Virus record (IMG/VR): IMGVR_UViG_3300013947_000019
Location: 195,864-259,863 of that record
Source: a virus
Lineage: Duplodnaviria; Caudoviricetes
Strand: one strand, 5' to 3'
DNA length: 64,000 bases
Of this stretch, positions 10,423 to 64,000 are shown piece after piece. Numbering within the stretch: position 1 is the first letter of the stretch; every line of letters begins with the position of its first letter. The notes under the pieces were generated by a model, which worked only from the letters and a program-made list of their open reading frames with translations, was not told the origin of the DNA and searched no databases. A program made the translations under genes and the position numbers.

Positions 10423-12752
10423 ATGGGATCTACTGGTTTACAGCTTGATCTGCTTGATATTGATAAGTTTATCCGTGTGAATGGACTACAGCCTGTGGGT
10501 AATCCAATTTTCTTAGATCGTAATATGCCTACTCGAGATGGTGTATTATCCTATGAAATTTTTGGTACTTCACAGGAAGAACGCAGAAATCGTTTTGCCT
10601 ATATTGATCTCCACCAGCATTATATGCATCCACTTGCTGCTACGAAGTTAAGTGGGTATGACCGTACACTTAGTAAGGTATTATTCAGTCAGTCTGCTTA
10701 TATTCTGAAAGATGGTGCACTAATTGAAGACTATGAAAATGGTAGATCTGGTCCTGAATTTCTGTATGAAATTTGGGGTAAAGTAAAAGTCAGAGATAAG
10801 GATACAATTACGACTAAAGAATTAGAGAAATTCTTTAAACAGGATCGTAATCAATTATTTATTACAAAGTGGTTGGTGATCCCTGCATTCTATCGTGATC
10901 TGAATATGACAGATGATGGTAGTGGTTTAAAGAAGAGTTCATCTACTTTAAATAGTATGTATTCTTCCATTATCTCTTATGTGCAGACATTGAATACATA
11001 TAGTGATATTTCTCATTATGCACGTTTGACACAATCTCGTGTACAGACATTACTCTGTGATCTGTATGAGAAACTGATGGTAGAAACAGTAAAGGGTAAA
11101 CCTTCTAAGTTTGGTATGCTTAAGAGAAGTTTACAAGCAAAGAATGTTAACTATTCTTCTCGCTTAGTATTATCTTCTCCTATTTTACAGAAGTCATCCT
11201 ATGAAGATGTACAAGTGAAATTTGGTTCTGCTACTATCCCGTTGGCTTATACAATTACTTCTTTCTTACCATTTGTTGTCTATCAAATGAAGCAGTTCTT
11301 TGATAGTAACTTTATTCAGGGTGGTAAAGTTCCTGTTATGAATAGAAGTACAAGAAAGATTGAATATACTTCTTTCAAGAACTCTTATGACGAGACAGAG
11401 ATTACGAAATTTATTAATCTATATCTGAATGATCCTGGCTCTCGTTTTAATCCGATGATCACTCCAGAAGATACCAATGGTAATACTCACCAAATGGTAA
11501 TTGTGGGACGATTTGGAAAAGAAAACACCACGATCTCTCGTGGTGCTACATTAACTGATATATTGTATATCTGTACAGTAGAAGCTACAAAAGATAAACA
11601 TGTGTTTGTTACTCGATATCCTTTGGATAACTATAATGGTCAATGGCCAGGTCGAGTAAATGTTTCTTCTACTATTAAAACTACTCCAGCATTAATTGGT
11701 AATACTTTCTATCCTTTCTATCCGGTATGTGAAGGAGATCCAATGAATGCTTTTGTAGATACGCTTCAGTTCAGTAATACAATGATTGATAAAATGGGTG
11801 CGGACTTAACTGTATCAAATGTCATGGTCCGTGCGGTGAGTAATCCCGTAAGAATAAACCAGTGAACGACTAACAATCGGTGTTGGTATAATTCATTATA
11901 TCAGCTAACGGTATCACCTAGAATAACCCAGGGGTAGGACTTCCACCCACCTACCTATACCAAACTGGCGAATGCGGTGACTAAGAGAACCTGACTCCCT
12001 GGATTATCTAGGGACATATGGAAATACCGTGCTTGGAAATATACAGGAATGTATGTGGATGAGTGTAGAGACTAATTGTAGGATTACGGTTGTGGCTGTA
12101 ATTCGAAGTGCTGGTTCCCTGAATGTATAAGACTCCAGGGTAAAGAGATAGTCCACATAGAAGTATATTACATACCAGTCCATGGATGAAATACTTAATA
12201 ACCGTTGTCCATGTAAAATCTACCTTAATTGCGGGAATCCCTTAGAGCTTACTATCGCTACAACGTGACCGAAAGGTGAGCGTGAATGCTGGCATTTATC
12301 AACGTTCGCGGGTTGAGTGGAGACCATAAAAAGTATAGTAAGATTGGGTAACCATAGGTTCAAGTCCTATAGACGCAGCTAAATCTCCTAAGTCAATATT
12401 GATATGGAGACTGTTCAGAGACTACGGGTAGACTCATATAAACATATGAGATTGTATAGTCCAATCAATAGTGAAAACTGTTATAATAAAGATTCTCTGA
12501 TATTTGATGATCTTTATTAATTAGTCGGACGGTGATACGTGTAGCCTCAGAGGGGTATTTACCAAGGAAGCTAATGCTGAGGCTGAGCAGAGAATTAACT
12601 CTGTAGCATATTTATTAGATGTTGAAGGTAAGTTTATGCGCAGTATTGGTAAAGATTTTAACTTATGCCTATATAACCTTACCAGAACATATGATAATAA
12701 AGTTGATTTCTTACAAGATATCAATAAAGAAAAACCTAAGTATGTAATTTAA
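10423..12752 (+). CDS. rpoC: RNA polymerase beta' subunit (catalytic piece, probably virion RNAP); spliced join(10423..11806,12186..12187,12528..12752), 536 aa
   Basis: DGVLSYEIFG, GKPSKFGMLKRSLQAKNVNYSSR and RYP motifs; splicing restores MGADYDGDTC (NADFDGD equivalent); exon 3 is open for 74 codons to TAA 12750. Confidence 0.85.
11807..12185 (+). mobile_element. group I intron 1 (no ORF)
   Basis: P1 GCGGACU/GGUCCGU with U-G at 11806; P3 AACCAG/CUGGUU; P7 GACUA/UAGUC (R GUAGAGACUA, S GAGAUAGUCC); terminal G at 12185. Confidence 0.85.
12188..12527 (+). mobile_element. group I intron 2 (no ORF)
   Basis: P1 CAUGGAU/GUCCAUG; P AAUUGCGGGAA, Q GACGCAGC, R GUUCAGAGACUA, S GUAUAGUCC; P3 UCUACC/GGUAGA; P10 ACCGUU/GACGGU; terminal G at 12527. 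Confidence 0.88.
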
Positions 12753-12757
12753 ATGAA

Positions 12758-12795
12758 AAGAAATCCCCTCCTTGATTGGAGGGGATTATTCTTTA
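12758..12795. terminator. bidirectional terminator
   Basis: AATCCCCTCC-ttgatt-GGAGGGGATT between convergent genes. Confidence 0.75.
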
Positions 12796-12803
12796 TTAAA
12801 AAA

Positions 12804-14081
12804 TTATTTATGAAGACGTATACAGATTATACCAGAACCACCATCTCCTCCTCCCCCACGCTGACCATCATTTCCACCAAATCCTCCGCCACCACTATTA
12901 GCAGTACCATTTTTATTATCATAATTACCACCACCACCTTCACCACCATTACCCCAAACGGAAGAAGAACCAACATTTACAACTCCTCCGCCTCCACCAC
13001 CGGCATATAATTTTCCAGAGGATTCACTAAACTCACGAGTGGTGGAACCTTGTCCAGTACCTATTGGGTACGTATTGATATTTGGTTTTGGATCACTTGC
13101 TTTACCATCACTTCCGTCACTACCACCATCTCCACCAATTTTAAAATATTCTGATGTTATTGATCTACCCATTCCTTGGCCTCCACCAGATCCACCATTA
13201 CCTCCACATATTAATAATTTAAGTGATGATACGGTTCCGCCAGGGTTTAATTTATTTGATATTTTTCCACCATTAGCAGTTAAACCAAATCCAATAGTAT
13301 CTTCACCATTCATTGGAGCACAATAAGTACTATTATTATAGTTATAAGAGCCAGCTTTACCGCCTGCACCTATTATAATATTATAATCACCTGGAATAAT
13401 TTCAATTGATTTTGATGTTTTAGTATATCCACCAGCTCCGCCTCCTCCGCCACCATACGATGAGCTACTGCTATACCAACCACCACAACCACCGCTACCA
13501 CCACCAACAAGAAATACATCAATACAATATTGTGCAGATATAGTTAATATTCCACTAGTAAGAAACTCGATAACACCATCACTGCGATAATTTGAATTAC
13601 CAGTATACGTATAACTAATCATATTAGCATTATAGAATTTATCAGTTTTGTTAATATTAATATAGTTAGTTATACTATTATCATTATTAGAATAAGTAAT
13701 ACTATATGTATAGCCCACCTCAACAGGAACTATTCGATATGTTTCATTATTTTCTAATATAAAAGTTTTATTAATGGAACCGCCACTATAATTAATAGTC
13801 CATCCAGGTAATGCAGATATACATAATAGTGCTATTCCAGTATCAGGCATAGAAGAAATATTACCAATATTATCAGCCATAGTTTGGAAAGTCGCATCAG
13901 ATGCAGTGCTAACACCCTTGTCAGTAATCGCACTAGCTATAAGCGACTTTCCATTACTGACAGATGTTTTTAAATCACTGATATCAGATGGATCATATGA
14001 TTGAATTATATTATTTATTCCTTTGTAAAAAAGGATACTTTTACCAACAGCAATCTGGCCGGATTTCAGAAAATCGGACAA
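12804..14081 (-). CDS. tail fibre / receptor-binding cassette 1 (Gly-rich C-terminal domain); no credible own start
   Basis: Shared module LKTSVSNGKSLIASAITDKGVSTASD; Gly-rich tip; TTG start lies in a terminator T tract. Confidence 0.65.
   Translation of the reverse strand: MSDFLKSGQIAVGKSILFYKGINNIIQSYDPSDISDLKTSVSNGKSLIASAITDKGVSTASDATFQTMADNIGNISSMPDTGIALLCISALPGWTINYSGGSINKTFILENNETYRIVPVEVGYTYSITYSNNDNSITNYININKTDKFYNANMISYTYTGNSNYRSDGVIEFLTSGILTISAQYCIDVFLVGGGSGGCGGWYSSSSSYGGGGGGAGGYTKTSKSIEIIPGDYNIIIGAGGKAGSYNYNNSTYCAPMNGEDTIGFGLTANGGKISNKLNPGGTVSSLKLLICGGNGGSGGGQGMGRSITSEYFKIGGDGGSDGSDGKASDPKPNINTYPIGTGQGSTTREFSESSGKLYAGGGGGGVVNVGSSSVWGNGGEGGGGNYDNKNGTANSGGGGFGGNDGQRGGGGDGGSGIICIRLHK
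14055..14079. repeat. 25-bp cassette-start site, copy 1
   Basis: CTGGCCGGATTTCAGAAAATCGGAC. Confidence 0.8.
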
Positions 14082-14120
14082 AAGAAGAACCCCACTCCAA
14101 ACTAAGGAGTGGGGATTTAT

Positions 14121-15728
14121 TTAAATATCTGTAACTACACCATCTTTAATGATAGCAGCATCTTGCTTATGAAAACCATCTGCAGCTTGATAATATACAT
14201 CATCAATACCATAATTTAGAGTAACCAGATCACTAGAGTACATATTGGTAATATGATTACCAGTTGTTGTAGGTTGACAAATAATAGTACCAGTATTATA
14301 GGTATTAGATTGGATAGTATATTTAGAAACTGCCATTTTATATCTACTAGAACTACTATCATAAGCACCTAATATATAAAAAATATTATCCTTTTGACAA
14401 TATCCAAAACTAAAATTCAATTTAATAAAAGGATATGTAATATTGGTATCAATAACATTTTTAATTACTGATGACGTACTAGTAGGAATATCATATACTA
14501 CGATATCAGTAAGATTACTTTTGTCTTCAGTATTAGCTGTTGTACCAATATAAAATACTTTACCATTAAAATTACATACCGCTATTGGACATTGTGCTAT
14601 AGTATATTCCTTAGGATATATAGTATAATCAGGAATAGTATAATTTTTATTAGTAATATCATACGTAAATAATAATTTCTCTTTAACGAAATAGTATAAA
14701 GTATTATTATAATAAACAAGTTTAGCTACTCTTGTATTATAAGAAAAACTATCTGAACTTAAACTTAGTGGATAATTCAAAATATCAACACTTATTAATT
14801 GTGTCATCCACATTGTTGAAGCCGTAGTATCGGTAGTTAATGTTGTCAAATCTAAAGAATATATACGAATTTGTTTAATTGATGTTGAATATTCATAAAT
14901 AGCACTTACATAAAGAATATTATTAATTACAGTACTAGCAATATAACGTAAAGAACCATTACTAAAACTAACTCGTGGATTACTATATTTTGGTAAACCA
15001 GTGTTAATATTTATATTTGTATATATAAGACTATTATCAGTAGCTGTATATTTAGCAAAGAATAGTGTATCATCATATATAAATGATGTATTAGAACTAA
15101 AATCTGCATTATAATATTTAGTCGTACTAGTGGTATCTATAGTAGCAGTATTGGTATCAGTATCTATACAATATAACCATGGTGCAGACCCATTACTGGT
15201 ATTACCAACTCGCCAACAATATAGTTTACCATCTGAGGATACGCCGGTAATATAGTTTGAATAACTGGATTCAACTGTTTTATCATATGTTATTGGTAGA
15301 CGTGATACAATACCATCTTCTAAATAATAATCTTCTTTAATTAAAATATTACTAACTTCACTTCTATTCCTTTTAATCCATAATCCATTCTGAGCAGTTG
15401 GTTGAGATATAGAACAGTAGATATTCATTTCACCCACTGTACCACTGGCTTGTGTATTAATATTACGGATATTAGTTGCCATATCATCAAAGCTATCTGT
15501 AGAAGCAGTGGACACACCCTTATCTGTAATAGCTTCTGATATAATTTCCTTACCATATTTTACTAACTCATTATTCATATCACTATAATCTCCTACGTCT
15601 GATTTAAGAGCATAGTTATCTGGATCAATTGTACGACTTGTTCCATCAGTTCCTTTATATAAAAGCTTTGTACTACCTGTCACAAGCTGGCCGGAACTCA
15701 GAAAATCCGACCATTTAGAAAAATACAT
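14121..15728 (-). CDS. tail fibre / receptor-binding cassette 2 (beta-propeller/Kelch-like)
   Basis: GKEIISEAITDKGVSTASTDSF module; SQPTAQNGLWIK; the ATG abuts the terminator stem. Confidence 0.65.
   Translation of the reverse strand: MYFSKWSDFLSSGQLVTGSTKLLYKGTDGTSRTIDPDNYALKSDVGDYSDMNNELVKYGKEIISEAITDKGVSTASTDSFDDMATNIRNINTQASGTVGEMNIYCSISQPTAQNGLWIKRNRSEVSNILIKEDYYLEDGIVSRLPITYDKTVESSYSNYITGVSSDGKLYCWRVGNTSNGSAPWLYCIDTDTNTATIDTTSTTKYYNADFSSNTSFIYDDTLFFAKYTATDNSLIYTNININTGLPKYSNPRVSFSNGSLRYIASTVINNILYVSAIYEYSTSIKQIRIYSLDLTTLTTDTTASTMWMTQLISVDILNYPLSLSSDSFSYNTRVAKLVYYNNTLYYFVKEKLLFTYDITNKNYTIPDYTIYPKEYTIAQCPIAVCNFNGKVFYIGTTANTEDKSNLTDIVVYDIPTSTSSVIKNVIDTNITYPFIKLNFSFGYCQKDNIFYILGAYDSSSSRYKMAVSKYTIQSNTYNTGTIICQPTTTGNHITNMYSSDLVTLNYGIDDVYYQAADGFHKQDAAIIKDGVVTDI
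15687..15711. repeat. 25-bp cassette-start site, copy 2
   Basis: CTGGCCGGAACTCAGAAAATCCGAC. Confidence 0.8.
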
Positions 15729-15758
15729 CTCCTCCCTTATTTGGGAGGAGATTAATCT

Positions 15759-16022
15759 TTATTTCTTTGTAAAACTATATGGATACTTACCTGAATGATC
15801 TTTAGTATAATCATTTGTATCAGGATCCAAAACATAAATATCATAGAACCAATACATTTTATCATTTACAGCTTTCTTTGCTGTATGGATGGAATACTTC
15901 TTAATTCCATCTTTTGTTACTTCTGCTTTATAACGCTTTTTACCATCAACCTTGACAAACTCAAAGCCTGGTTCAGCATCAGCAAGCATAGCCTGCATCT
16001 TCTTCACCGGGAATAAGAACAT
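15759..16022 (-). CDS. hypothetical protein
   Basis: 87 aa, SD AAAGGAG, late-type motif at 16061-16073. Confidence 0.7.
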   Translation of the reverse strand: MFLFPVKKMQAMLADAEPGFEFVKVDGKKRYKAEVTKDGIKKYSIHTAKKAVNDKMYWFYDIYVLDPDTNDYTKDHSGKYPYSFTKK

Positions 16023-16120
16023 ATCTCAATCTCCTTTCATTCAGTATTGGTACACTAACTCTATATAAATGTTCTACATAAATATAATACCCAGATATAT
16101 GAAGGGAGTGTTTATATAAT

Positions 16121-16360
16121 ATGAGTGCTAATGCCGAATTGGTCGAGATTGGGAATTGTCCTCCTGGTGCTCGTGGTAGTTTAACAGAAGATGCGATCAA
16201 ATGGATGAAAGATAACGGACATTGGCCTGAAGATGATCCTGGAACAGGTGGTACTGGAGGCGGAAGTGGCGAAGGTTCTGGTGGTAGTAACAGCAATCAT
16301 GTATGTGAACCCGATTATGAACTGAAGCATCCGAAAAAAAATTTCCCTTTTTGGATTTGA
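16121..16360 (+). CDS. hypothetical protein (Gly-rich linker)
   Basis: 79 aa, SD AAGGGAG, terminator downstream. Confidence 0.55.
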   Translation: MSANAELVEIGNCPPGARGSLTEDAIKWMKDNGHWPEDDPGTGGTGGGSGEGSGGSNSNHVCEPDYELKHPKKNFPFWI

Positions 16361-16407
16361 TTCAACCAATAGAAATCCCCACCCTATAATGGGTGGGGAC
16401 TATTTCT

Positions 16408-16641
16408 TTATTCTGAAACAGAATTTAACTTAGCAAGATATGCTTCTAAGCACTCCTCTGGAGTATCAAATTCTTTTTCTAGCATATCTTCGATAGTCAT
16501 AACTTTATTAATTTCAGTAATATAACCACGCTTTCCTATGCAAATAACATCATCATTTTCATAATGAAAATTCTTAATGGCTAAAGCAATTCTTTCATCA
16601 GAAGCAGTCTCTCCAACCTTAATAACATAGCCCATAAACAT
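16408..16641 (-). CDS. small protein following cassette 3 (possible fibre chaperone)
   Basis: SD GGGAGG; directly downstream of a fibre gene. Confidence 0.5.
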   Translation of the reverse strand: MFMGYVIKVGETASDERIALAIKNFHYENDDVICIGKRGYITEINKVMTIEDMLEKEFDTPEECLEAYLAKLNSVSE

Positions 16642-16655
16642 AATTCAATTCCTCC

Positions 16656-18161
16656 CTAAATATCTTTAATAATATTACCATTTTTAATGATTGCACCAGA
16701 TATTTTCTTAAATCCATCATTAGATTGATAATATATATCACTAATTCCAAGATTTAAACTAGCTGCAGAATCATTATATACCTCAGTGTTATCATATATT
16801 GTTGGCATACAATATACATTATTATTATCATATAAATGTGTGTCTAAATGATATTCAGTTATATATTTAACACCTGTATAGCTACTTTGGCTATTTACAT
16901 ATGCTCCACCACCAATATATAATACCCCATCTACATAACTATTTACAGCACCATATGCTTGACTTCTTGCTTGTGAACTTGGAAGTGTTAGATTAGAATA
17001 TGTATATATTTCAGTATTCAAATCAAATATACTAATTCGTTTAGCCTCGTTATAAAAAGCATTCGTGGTATCAGCAGAGCTCTTTGTTCCTATATTATAT
17101 ATATAATTAAATAATTTAAACCAACATACCGAACTATAACTGTATTTATCAGATAATGGTATTACTGGACTACAAAGTGTTATTATTTTTGATGATATAT
17201 CTATCTTTCCAAAAATGTAAATTGAATCTTTTAATAAATATATTTTATTATCATATATAAATAATGATGTTGGTGTTGTAGCATCTCGGCAATTTACACT
17301 AATAAAATTAGTATATGTATCACTGATTAAATCGTATTTATCAATCACTATTTTATTATTACTACTACCAGAACTATTATAAATATAATCTTTACTATAT
17401 ACAAAGTTGCCTTCTTTCCAAGTCCCTTGTATATCATTTCCTCTAGCAGTTGAAAATTGTTTAGTAGTATATGTATTTGTATTAGGATCCAATATAATAA
17501 AATCATTCTTATGATAATATGTATATTCATTATTACATACAGTAACATGCTGATATAACTTATTATCATATACAAAAGATGGATTATTATTGTTACCTAC
17601 TGTGCGAAAGTTTCCAGGTGAAATATTATTAACTGTAGTAATTATTTTTGTTTTTGTATCATATATAAATCCAGTATTTCTAGTAGTAAATCCATATGAA
17701 CTCCCTAGATATCCTGAATTTACATAAAATAATCCATTAATATAACCACCCCAACAACCCATACAATTCTCTGGTAATAGATTATTAATGGCTTCAATCG
17801 TTCCATCAGGAATATAATAATCAGGTTGAATATTGATCTTATTTACTTCAGCTGAATTCTTTTTAATCCATATACCATTTTGTATATTAGGTTGAGAGTC
17901 AGAACAAACAATATTCAAAATACCACCTATTTCAATTTTTCTGATATTATTACTCATAGTAGTAAAACTATCAGATGCAGCGGTTGGAACTCCCTTGTCA
18001 GTTACCGCTGCGGCAATTAAACTTTTGCCATTACTGACAGAGGATTTTAAATTATTTATTTCAGTATTAAGAGTATCTATACTATCTTGGCTAGCTAATT
18101 GTATTGTAGAACTATTAAGTCTCAGGAAACCCTTATTTAGGCCAGTACAGAGCTGGCCCAA
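16656..18161 (-). CDS. tail fibre / receptor-binding cassette 3 (Kelch-like); no credible own start
   Basis: LKSSVSNGKSLIAAAVTDKGVPTAASDSF; SQPNIQNGIWIK; C-terminus paralogous to cassette 2 (AIIKNG/AIIKDG). Confidence 0.65.
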   Translation of the reverse strand: MGQLCTGLNKGFLRLNSSTIQLASQDSIDTLNTEINNLKSSVSNGKSLIAAAVTDKGVPTAASDSFTTMSNNIRKIEIGGILNIVCSDSQPNIQNGIWIKKNSAEVNKINIQPDYYIPDGTIEAINNLLPENCMGCWGGYINGLFYVNSGYLGSSYGFTTRNTGFIYDTKTKIITTVNNISPGNFRTVGNNNNPSFVYDNKLYQHVTVCNNEYTYYHKNDFIILDPNTNTYTTKQFSTARGNDIQGTWKEGNFVYSKDYIYNSSGSSNNKIVIDKYDLISDTYTNFISVNCRDATTPTSLFIYDNKIYLLKDSIYIFGKIDISSKIITLCSPVIPLSDKYSYSSVCWFKLFNYIYNIGTKSSADTTNAFYNEAKRISIFDLNTEIYTYSNLTLPSSQARSQAYGAVNSYVDGVLYIGGGAYVNSQSSYTGVKYITEYHLDTHLYDNNNVYCMPTIYDNTEVYNDSAASLNLGISDIYYQSNDGFKKISGAIIKNGNIIKDI

Positions 18162-18177
18162 CTTCAGAAAATCCGGC
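18153..18177. repeat. 25-bp cassette-start site, copy 3
   Basis: CTGGCCCAACTTCAGAAAATCCGGC. Confidence 0.75.
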
Positions 18178-18236
18178 CTAGGGTAAAATATTAAAAAGAC
18201 AAAAATTCCCTCCCAATTAAGGGAGGGAATATATTT

Positions 18237-63186: not shown

Positions 63187-64000
63187 TTAGTCCTTGAAGA
63201 AATTCAGAGCAGACATATCCATGTCACTCGGAGCAATCTTCTTGGAAACTTTACCCAACGGGTTACCCATATCAGCCATAATATCGCCGATAGAAGATCC
63301 AGACTTCTTGACATTATTCATGATCTCATCATACCGCTGCTTCATCAGCCACAGACGATCGCCAGGTTCATCAACACCAGTCATGACAATCCCAACATAG
63401 GGATCTTCGGCAATTTCCAGATGGAAATACCGAACTGCAGCATTACCATACTTTGCAGCCAACTGACTCAGAGTCGTATCAGCATTCCGCACAAAGTCCT
63501 CAGGGCCTTTCAGGAACAAACCGATGCCGTCAACCCCCAAGGGAGCAGGCATAGAAGACTGCGTGATCATTGTATCAATGAAATCATCAAGAGTCTGACC
63601 AACTACAGGACGGCCCTGCTTACCATACACACAGATACGACCACCGATATGCTTCAACAGCATATACATGTCTCGGTTATCGATAGCACTGATATTGGTA
63701 GGACCGAACATAGCACCAGACAGAATTTTGATAGCCTGTGCGGCTTCGTCATTGATCTTCTTATGTACCAGCAATTTAGCAGGATTAGAAGGATCGTTAT
63801 TATCCAGAATGATATAGGGGCATTCTGTCTTCTCAATCTCAGACTGCCACTGCAGAGCATTGAACTGAGCAGTAGCATCCTCAGAAAGAGCAGGATATAC
63901 ACCCATGATAATCACAGGAACATCCATATTATCATTCAGGAACTTAGCGATCATCGGAGATACACCGCCACCAGTACCACCATCAGCAGTAGTGGTAACA
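63187..64000 (-). CDS. phuZ: tubulin/FtsZ-family protein, PhuZ-like (start lies beyond window end)
   Basis: Frame extends past 63954: TTADGGTGGGVSP tubulin signature; IILDN; SAIDNRD (T7-loop-like). Confidence 0.8.
   Translation of the reverse strand, partial: VTTTADGGTGGGVSPMIAKFLNDNMDVPVIIMGVYPALSEDATAQFNALQWQSEIEKTECPYIILDNNDPSNPAKLLVHKKINDEAAQAIKILSGAMFGPTNISAIDNRDMYMLLKHIGGRICVYGKQGRPVVGQTLDDFIDTMITQSSMPAPLGVDGIGLFLKGPEDFVRNADTTLSQLAAKYGNAAVRYFHLEIAEDPYVGIVMTGVDEPGDRLWLMKQRYDEIMNNVKKSGSSIGDIMADMGNPLGKVSKKIAPSDMDMSALNFFKD

Follow-up and report, generated by a model that had tools for sequence, protein, structure and literature searches.

A probable tail-fiber switch with crossover sites dispersed among the genes of a gut jumbo phage

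The DNA analyzed here, called the window throughout, is a stretch of 64,000 nucleotides comprising bases 195864-259863 of the 259,863-bp record of a gut jumbo phage, which CheckV rates as complete. Near its start lie three minus-strand cassettes that encode the C-terminal parts of tail fibers without an N-terminal head, and each opens at a copy of a 25-bp element that is probably a crossover site for recombination. The copies that open cassettes are called silent sites below, as distinct from a single expression site elsewhere in the genome. The array is laid out as follows, in window coordinates.

12762..12787, minus strand: predicted terminator closing cassette D5, and hence the end of the array
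12804..14069, minus strand: cassette D5, a headless fiber C-terminus with a T-D-K-G-V module and a glycine-rich tip; predicted fusion ~480 amino acids (aa)
14055..14080, minus strand: silent site s5, central CT at 14069-14068, 11 nt in each flank, dyad match 7/11
14090..14114, minus strand: predicted intrinsic terminator that would insulate cassette D5 from upstream transcription
14121..15701, minus strand: cassette D6, a headless fiber C-terminus with a Kelch-like propeller tip; predicted fusion ~585 aa
15687..15712, minus strand: silent site s6, central CT at 15701-15700, dyad match 7/11
15727..15752, minus strand: predicted intrinsic terminator that would insulate cassette D6; its 3' arm holds the only Shine-Dalgarno (SD)-like sequence, which abuts an ATG
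16656..18167, minus strand: cassette D7, a headless fiber C-terminus; predicted fusion ~562 aa
18153..18178, minus strand: silent site s7, central CT at 18167-18166
18205..18230, minus strand: predicted intrinsic terminator that would insulate cassette D7

The three elements had been picked out earlier from the letters of the window, and their positions (14055, 15687, and 18153) and sequence are borne out: the window holds three matches to the site pattern, compared to 0.02 expected by chance. They also share orientation and frame, as that sequence-only reading had it, all three reading in the minus-strand sense through F-L-x-x-G-Q into the open reading frame (ORF) that follows. What the earlier count of three did not convey is the size of the family. 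Further copies were suspected elsewhere in the genome, and there are indeed eight good silent sites on one strand, seven of them recovered by a genome-wide pattern scan and the eighth by nhmmer (E 2e-4), together with a decayed ninth copy. The silent sites lie at genome positions 148419, 155141 (s1), 180398, 182456, and 185795, in addition to s5, s6, and s7 in the window, and so span 66 kb (148419-214040). All eight are on the minus strand and the genome-wide scan found none on the plus strand. The decayed copy, at 179730-179753, lacks a terminator and sits directly past a cassette stop codon; it has CTAG for a core and a degenerate right half, and a complete fiber-like gene comes next.

Each site has an 11-2-11 architecture, with two imperfect inverted half-sites about an asymmetric 2-bp core, the central CT. 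The dyad match about CT is 6-8/11 in the silent sites, compared to 0-5/11 in chance hits to a loose pattern, and shifting the axis removes the signal. The dyad symmetry described from the window is thus real although imperfect, and the perfect dyad exists only in the composite that was drawn up from the three copies. No silent site departs from the core CTGA or from the outer GGCC of its right half. Two of the left halves contain an in-frame TGA, and two sites (148419 and 182456) are not fused to the next gene at all but open a short dead-end frame, after which a good SD and ATG begin a complete fiber gene; because of these two pairs of cases, we take the site to be conserved as DNA rather than as protein. 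As a separate observation, an identical terminator, T-run, and left half-site stand duplicated before two different sites (148444-148510 and 185820-185885).

A terminator precedes every one of the eight silent sites, and those in the window lie 10-27 nt ahead of their sites on the same strand; the region as a whole has 15 terminator-like sites, compared to 2.0 expected. The earlier statements that each window site follows an intrinsic terminator, and that the cassettes have neither a promoter motif nor a proper SD and start codon, both hold. No well-spaced SD and ATG was found for the D5, D6, and D7 ORFs, whose start options are a TTG beside or within the site or an ATG touching the terminator stem. 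No motif of the AR9 late-promoter type (PMC5312081) occurs within 110 nt upstream of any silent site. This motif is enriched before genes (43, versus 16 in an antisense control), and the gene at the expression locus has only a near match to it.

The cassettes themselves are very AT-rich, as first noted, with a GC content of 0.26-0.27 within the two long ones, and alignment A1 confirms that the T-D-K-G-V module is common to them. Their tips had been described as one glycine-rich and two propeller-like. The first of these stands, since the D5 tip matches PF21722 (E 1e-16); the propellers stand in part, that of D6 through a low-confidence model and that of D7 through its 30% identity to D6. The model of the D6 tip (mean predicted local distance difference test score [pLDDT], 55) is six-bladed and matches Kelch propellers in a fold search (E 3e-12), and neither the D6 nor the D7 tip has a significant Pfam match. 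A head-fused protein of another gut phage (P0003) is 44% identical to D6 (E 1e-122) from the L-x-S-G-Q junction through the last residue. The first 85 residues of D7 are 84% identical to the post-junction part of the fiber now at the expression site.

A constant fiber N-terminus had been predicted to lie outside the window, and it is found there, in an expressed-looking fiber gene that carries a site in the opposite orientation.

174254-175462 (genome), plus strand: fiber gene with the constant head, comprising SD, ATG, a constant 60-residue N-terminus, and an in-frame site

The expression site, at genome position 174431 and 21.4 kb before the window, was found through synteny with a relative. 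It is the sole site-like sequence on its strand, and all eight silent sites are inverted with respect to it. There is no terminator between this gene and the plus-strand genes upstream. The constant N-terminus, which presumably anchors the fiber to the virion, stops at a Leu codon and is followed by the right half-site and then by the cassette body. Expression and silent sites have the CT core and right half in common; the left half of the expression site is diverged, in keeping with coding constraint. All silent sites carry the Leu codon in that same frame (the CTG of the D5 site, for instance, is in frame with Leu60 of the head), and exchange at the central CT would therefore give in-frame fusions.

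For comparison we used G001, a 256,437-bp phage that is ~85% identical, G002, a 25-kb fragment that is ~99% identical, and several gut-metagenome contigs. A pattern scan of viral contigs returned mostly chance hits, and G001 and G002 were the only true relatives in it. Across nine related assemblies, at least five types of cassette are joined to the constant head (74-94% protein identity), with the junction exactly at the site's central CT, as follows; the gene diversified by a neighboring diversity-generating retroelement (DGR) is among them.

G001 and L097: a dead end and the DGR target gene
L083, L084, L085, and L094: the type that is silent here at s1 (155141)
L086 and L106: the type to which D6 and its paralogue D4 (at 185795 here) belong
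L087 and related proteins: glycine-rich tips
This genome: a cassette resembling D7 over the first 85 residues

These head-cassette fusions, and breakpoints at the sites in the relatives, support the earlier proposal that the cassettes are joined to a constant head by recombination at the sites. Orthologous downstream flanks are found behind different upstream flanks in this genome and in G001, which amounts to permutation and not duplication. The cassette in the expression position here sits in G001 behind the upstream flank of another site. Synteny between the two genomes falls into 10 blocks, some of them inverted, and a site core is no more than 30 nt away from 6 of the 18 internal block ends, compared to ~0.04 expected by our own estimate; s7 coincides with a synteny breakpoint 3 nt from its core. 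An 11.4-kb contig (L094) consists of a 4.5-kb backbone segment, a cassette, a site, the constant head, and 6 kb of the neighboring 19-kb segment in inverted orientation, which is the arrangement that recombination between the expression site and s1 would be expected to produce, and L085 has the same junction. In G001, three sites are direct relative to the expression site and lie within a region that is inverted compared to this genome, as would arise by nested inversions.

Small conserved stem-loops are also seen just past the site in the relatives (G001 225287-225320, L069; G002 12790-12819, L071; G001 12070-12099, L058). In complete-gene cassettes the SD lies within the 3' arm of this stem-loop and may serve translational control, and the structure is weak or absent in the two copies of the present genome.

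The window had shown no recombinase, and a serine or tyrosine enzyme was to be sought in the rest of the genome. A serine recombinase is present, and no tyrosine recombinase was detected: a search with PF00589 came up empty for this genome and for G001, whereas it matched 14 of 14 control genomes.

162491-163705 (genome): serine recombinase gene, 404 aa (PF00239)

The PF00239 match covers residues 19-161 (E 6e-31 to 3e-29), and this genome and G001 have one copy each. Residues 1-225 look like an entire small serine recombinase, in which a catalytic serine, a G-R-P-K arm, a long helix, and three further helices (177-220) can be recognized. Foldseek aligned ~200 columns of the model (mean pLDDT, 58.6) to full-length gamma-delta, Tn3, and Sin resolvases, including their DNA-binding helices, and the closest solved structures are Sin/Bin3, gamma-delta, and Gin. 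An R-V-S motif is invariant in 12 of 12 homologs, and a conserved C-terminal extension of 180 residues follows residue 225. The protein is conserved across the phage family, including contigs of 240-245 kb, and is abundant in gut metagenomes, with about 1,800 homologs in the protein collection. Its gene, 11 kb away from the expression site, is part of a 19-kb segment that the proposed switch would turn over. We propose that this enzyme would catalyze exchange at the sites.

The DGR is complete and occupies genome positions 144893-148368 (L076:893-4368), with a reverse transcriptase (RVT_1, E 2e-11), an Avd-like gene whose bAvd match is weak, and a pair of template and variable repeats (TR and VR). 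Over 93 nt, the TR (146453-146545) and the VR (147325-147417) differ at 15 positions, all 15 of them at TR adenines. The target fiber gene is in a silent position here and at the expression site in G001 and L097. The DGR target is therefore itself a switchable cassette, and two diversification systems are stacked. Phage DGRs of the BPP-1 Mtd type likewise diversify a receptor-binding protein, although, unlike the fiber switch considered here, they act by mutagenic retrohoming.

Taken together, we put at roughly 0.78 the probability that the 25-bp elements are the crossover sites of a dispersed tail-fiber shufflon, that is, a switch of the multiple-recombination kind. A single plus-strand expression locus would supply transcription, SD, ATG, and the constant 60-residue N-terminus, and the eight minus-strand silent sites spread over 66 kb, each behind a terminator, would each open a cassette. 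The majority of cassettes are headless fiber C-termini read from the central CT in frame through L-x-x-G-Q; the others are complete fiber genes that follow a short dead-end frame and bring a ribosome-binding site of their own, one of them being the DGR target. If the expression site recombines with an inverted silent site, the exchange probably falling exactly at the central CT, the 6-40 kb between them would flip; a new cassette would then stand behind the constant head and the old one would be parked behind a terminator, and the receptor-binding tip of the virion would therefore change. Headless cassettes would be silent until fused, and complete-gene cassettes would gain only a promoter from the switch. 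The comparative data show reassortment on an evolutionary scale; switching would presumably also occur within one population.

Several observations weigh against this switch, at least as the sole process. In G001 and L087, several silent sites are direct and lie just past the expression site, where recombination would delete DNA and not invert it. G002 is ~99% identical to this genome on either side of s1, yet it has a different cassette from the site to the shared terminator, and a single inversion is therefore insufficient. The cassettes are mosaic, sharing N-terminal modules and C-terminal ends, which does not agree with simple inversion. Half-sites do not always co-segregate with their own flanks between two genomes, a mismatch that fits gene conversion or homologous exchange equally well, and the duplicated terminator and left half-site would not be produced by conservative recombination alone. 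In the expression site of this genome (174431-174445), A replaces the otherwise invariant G after CT, a change unique among the true sites of the genomes compared, and this site may be a poor, weakened, or locked substrate. The recombinase is linked to the sites by co-occurrence only, its gene lies 11 kb off and its 180-residue extension is unassigned, and assemblies from mixed metagenome populations can be chimeras of isomers. Because of the cassette replacement in G002, the mosaic cassettes, the duplicated terminator with half-site, and the mismatch of half-sites and flanks, we conclude that these loci are also subject to gene conversion or homologous exchange. Those same four observations would suit an account with no dedicated system at all, in which the sites are conserved linkers, homologous recombination between co-infecting relatives or paralogues reassorts the fibers over evolution, and the arrangement is fixed in each phage. 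This account appears unlikely. A length of 24 bp is short for homologous exchange, yet breaks end a few nucleotides from the core, and the core and dyad are kept where the site is noncoding, before complete genes. There is exactly one expression site per genome, to which all eight silent sites here are inverted, flanks have been swapped reciprocally and not duplicated, and a conserved serine recombinase is present with no other evident role.

An integron-like main mode, in which a cassette between direct sites leaves as a circle and is inserted again, at the expression site or in another place, and inversion is secondary, is a good deal less probable again. It would account for the direct arrays of terminator, site, and cassette just past the expression site in G001 and L087, for the similar array of s7, s6, and s5 here, and for the cassette-level replacement that distinguishes G002 from this genome. 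However, essential-looking genes lie between most silent sites, so that deletion between them would be lethal; the cassette replaced at s1 has no 3' site; and inversion is needed to explain the inverted blocks and the junction in L094. That the element is instead a 5' regulatory signal of independently expressed fiber genes (a promoter, an operator hairpin, or an unusual translation start) is scarcely credible, even though it always lies between a terminator and a fiber gene, a GTG follows four sites at 4 nt, and two sites are in the 5' leaders of ordinary genes. The same element stands in frame in the middle of the gene at the expression locus, and many database proteins have the constant head fused exactly there to cassette homologs; moreover, the GTG is not kept in relatives, there is no SD, and changes in the arms are not consistently compensatory.

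Some narrower readings of the element were also rejected. For an RNA hairpin or operator, or a hairpin promoter of the N4 type, an apparent compensatory pair at one G001 site proved inconsistent, since the same right arm occurs with a noncomplementary left arm, and RNA models of the site are unnecessary because fusions at the DNA level were found. A splice acceptor, suggested by a pyrimidine tract and TAG before four sites, proved to be the terminator T-run, and the upstream hairpins are unrelated in sequence. Recoded stop codons were set aside since the TAG is out of frame and an in-frame TGA occurs in only two left halves, and independent GTG starts were set aside since the GTG is not conserved among relatives.

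We rate a stronger form of the shufflon somewhat short of even odds. The phage would routinely flip up to 40 kb, or ~15% of its chromosome, including replication, virion, and recombinase genes, and a single infection lineage could give progeny with any of at least nine tips, one of them hypermutated by the DGR and switched on and off in the same way. Arrays of cassettes in direct repeat may add excision and re-insertion. If this is true, the result would be a two-tier generator of host range on a genome-wide scale.

The closest known system is Min of the P1-related plasmid prophage p15B, along with the simpler Gin (Mu), Cin (P1), and Pin (e14) (PMC6109161, PMC9881135). As in the present genome, these have a serine recombinase of the resolvase/invertase type, short imperfect-dyad crossover sites with an asymmetric central dinucleotide and inverted partners, and one constant fiber N-terminus with alternative C-terminal segments with no expression signals of their own, and in these systems too the receptor-binding tip changes. 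They differ in scale, having 2-6 sites in a segment of ~3-4 kb beside the invertase gene, whereas here 8-10 sites are spread over 66 kb among unrelated genes and the predicted inversions of 6-40 kb, which include the recombinase gene, are far larger than the Min, Gin, and Cin segments. Their recombinases are ~190 aa and comprise a catalytic domain, a G-R-P arm, and a C-terminal helix-turn-helix without further parts, compared to 404 aa with the 180-residue extension, and their site sequences are unrelated to the one described here. Members of this class depend on a Fis-bound enhancer, and their inversion within a population has been demonstrated. Unlike in those systems, some cassettes here are whole genes, to which the switch would add no more than a promoter, one is a DGR target, and the host is probably Gram positive.

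The R64 shufflon uses the tyrosine recombinase Rci and sfx sites to vary the pilus adhesin PilV in a set of contiguous segments. It resembles the present system in its many sites, nested inversions, constant N-terminus, and variable C-termini, and only the core and one arm of sfx are well conserved, much as the expression site here has a left half that is diverged. The differences are that no tyrosine recombinase was found here, that the target is a phage fiber, and that the cassettes are dispersed. Integrons, with IntI, attI, and contiguous cassettes that end in attC, differ in the same respect of enzyme and layout, and the site here is at the 5' end of the cassette. The Rin shufflon of Bifidobacterium prophages has a tyrosine invertase, asymmetric 11-bp sites, and a compact locus flanked by the invertase gene (PMC6109161). 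Like the present system, it belongs to gut phages, joins a constant receptor-binding-protein N-terminus to variable C-terminal genes that each follow a short repeat, and was recognized largely by genome comparison; in place of its enzyme, short sites, and compact locus, we find a serine recombinase and dispersed sites of ~24-25 bp. A literature search found no published description of such a dispersed fiber switch.

Programmed fiber switching has so far been a matter of compact loci of a few kilobases in temperate enterobacterial phages and Bifidobacterium prophages. Here the same logic apparently extends over a quarter of a jumbo phage chromosome, with 8-10 cassettes amid essential genes, and apparently also governs expression of a DGR-diversified fiber. 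If the switching is active, large programmed inversions are tolerated in a giant phage of the lytic type, the wide spread of this phage family in human gut metagenomes becomes easier to explain, and the cassettes offer a natural modular scaffold for studies of host-range determinants. There is also a practical consequence: an assembly of such a phage may represent an arbitrary isomer or a chimera of several, and the sites are places where contigs tend to end.

In relatives, an endolysin with CHAP and PG_binding_1 domains is encoded 2-3 kb upstream of the expression locus (L083:11-1246, L087:1-576). The endolysin domains and the strong SD sequences make a Gram-positive gut host probable.

One further small ORF lies within the array, in window coordinates.

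16408..16641, minus strand: 77-aa ORF with its own SD, 12 nt past the D7 stop codon and ahead of the next terminator; no Pfam or PHROG match

This ORF is likely to move together with D7. Between D7 and s6 there are also two small ORFs, 16121-16360 on the plus strand and 15759-16022 on the minus strand, neither with a family match; the one on the strand opposite to the cassettes has a Gly/Ser-rich middle. Window 63900-64000 and genome 1-100, the termini of the record, map to overlapping positions in G001, ~98 nt, and are contiguous there, which indicates a closed circle or a permuted genome.

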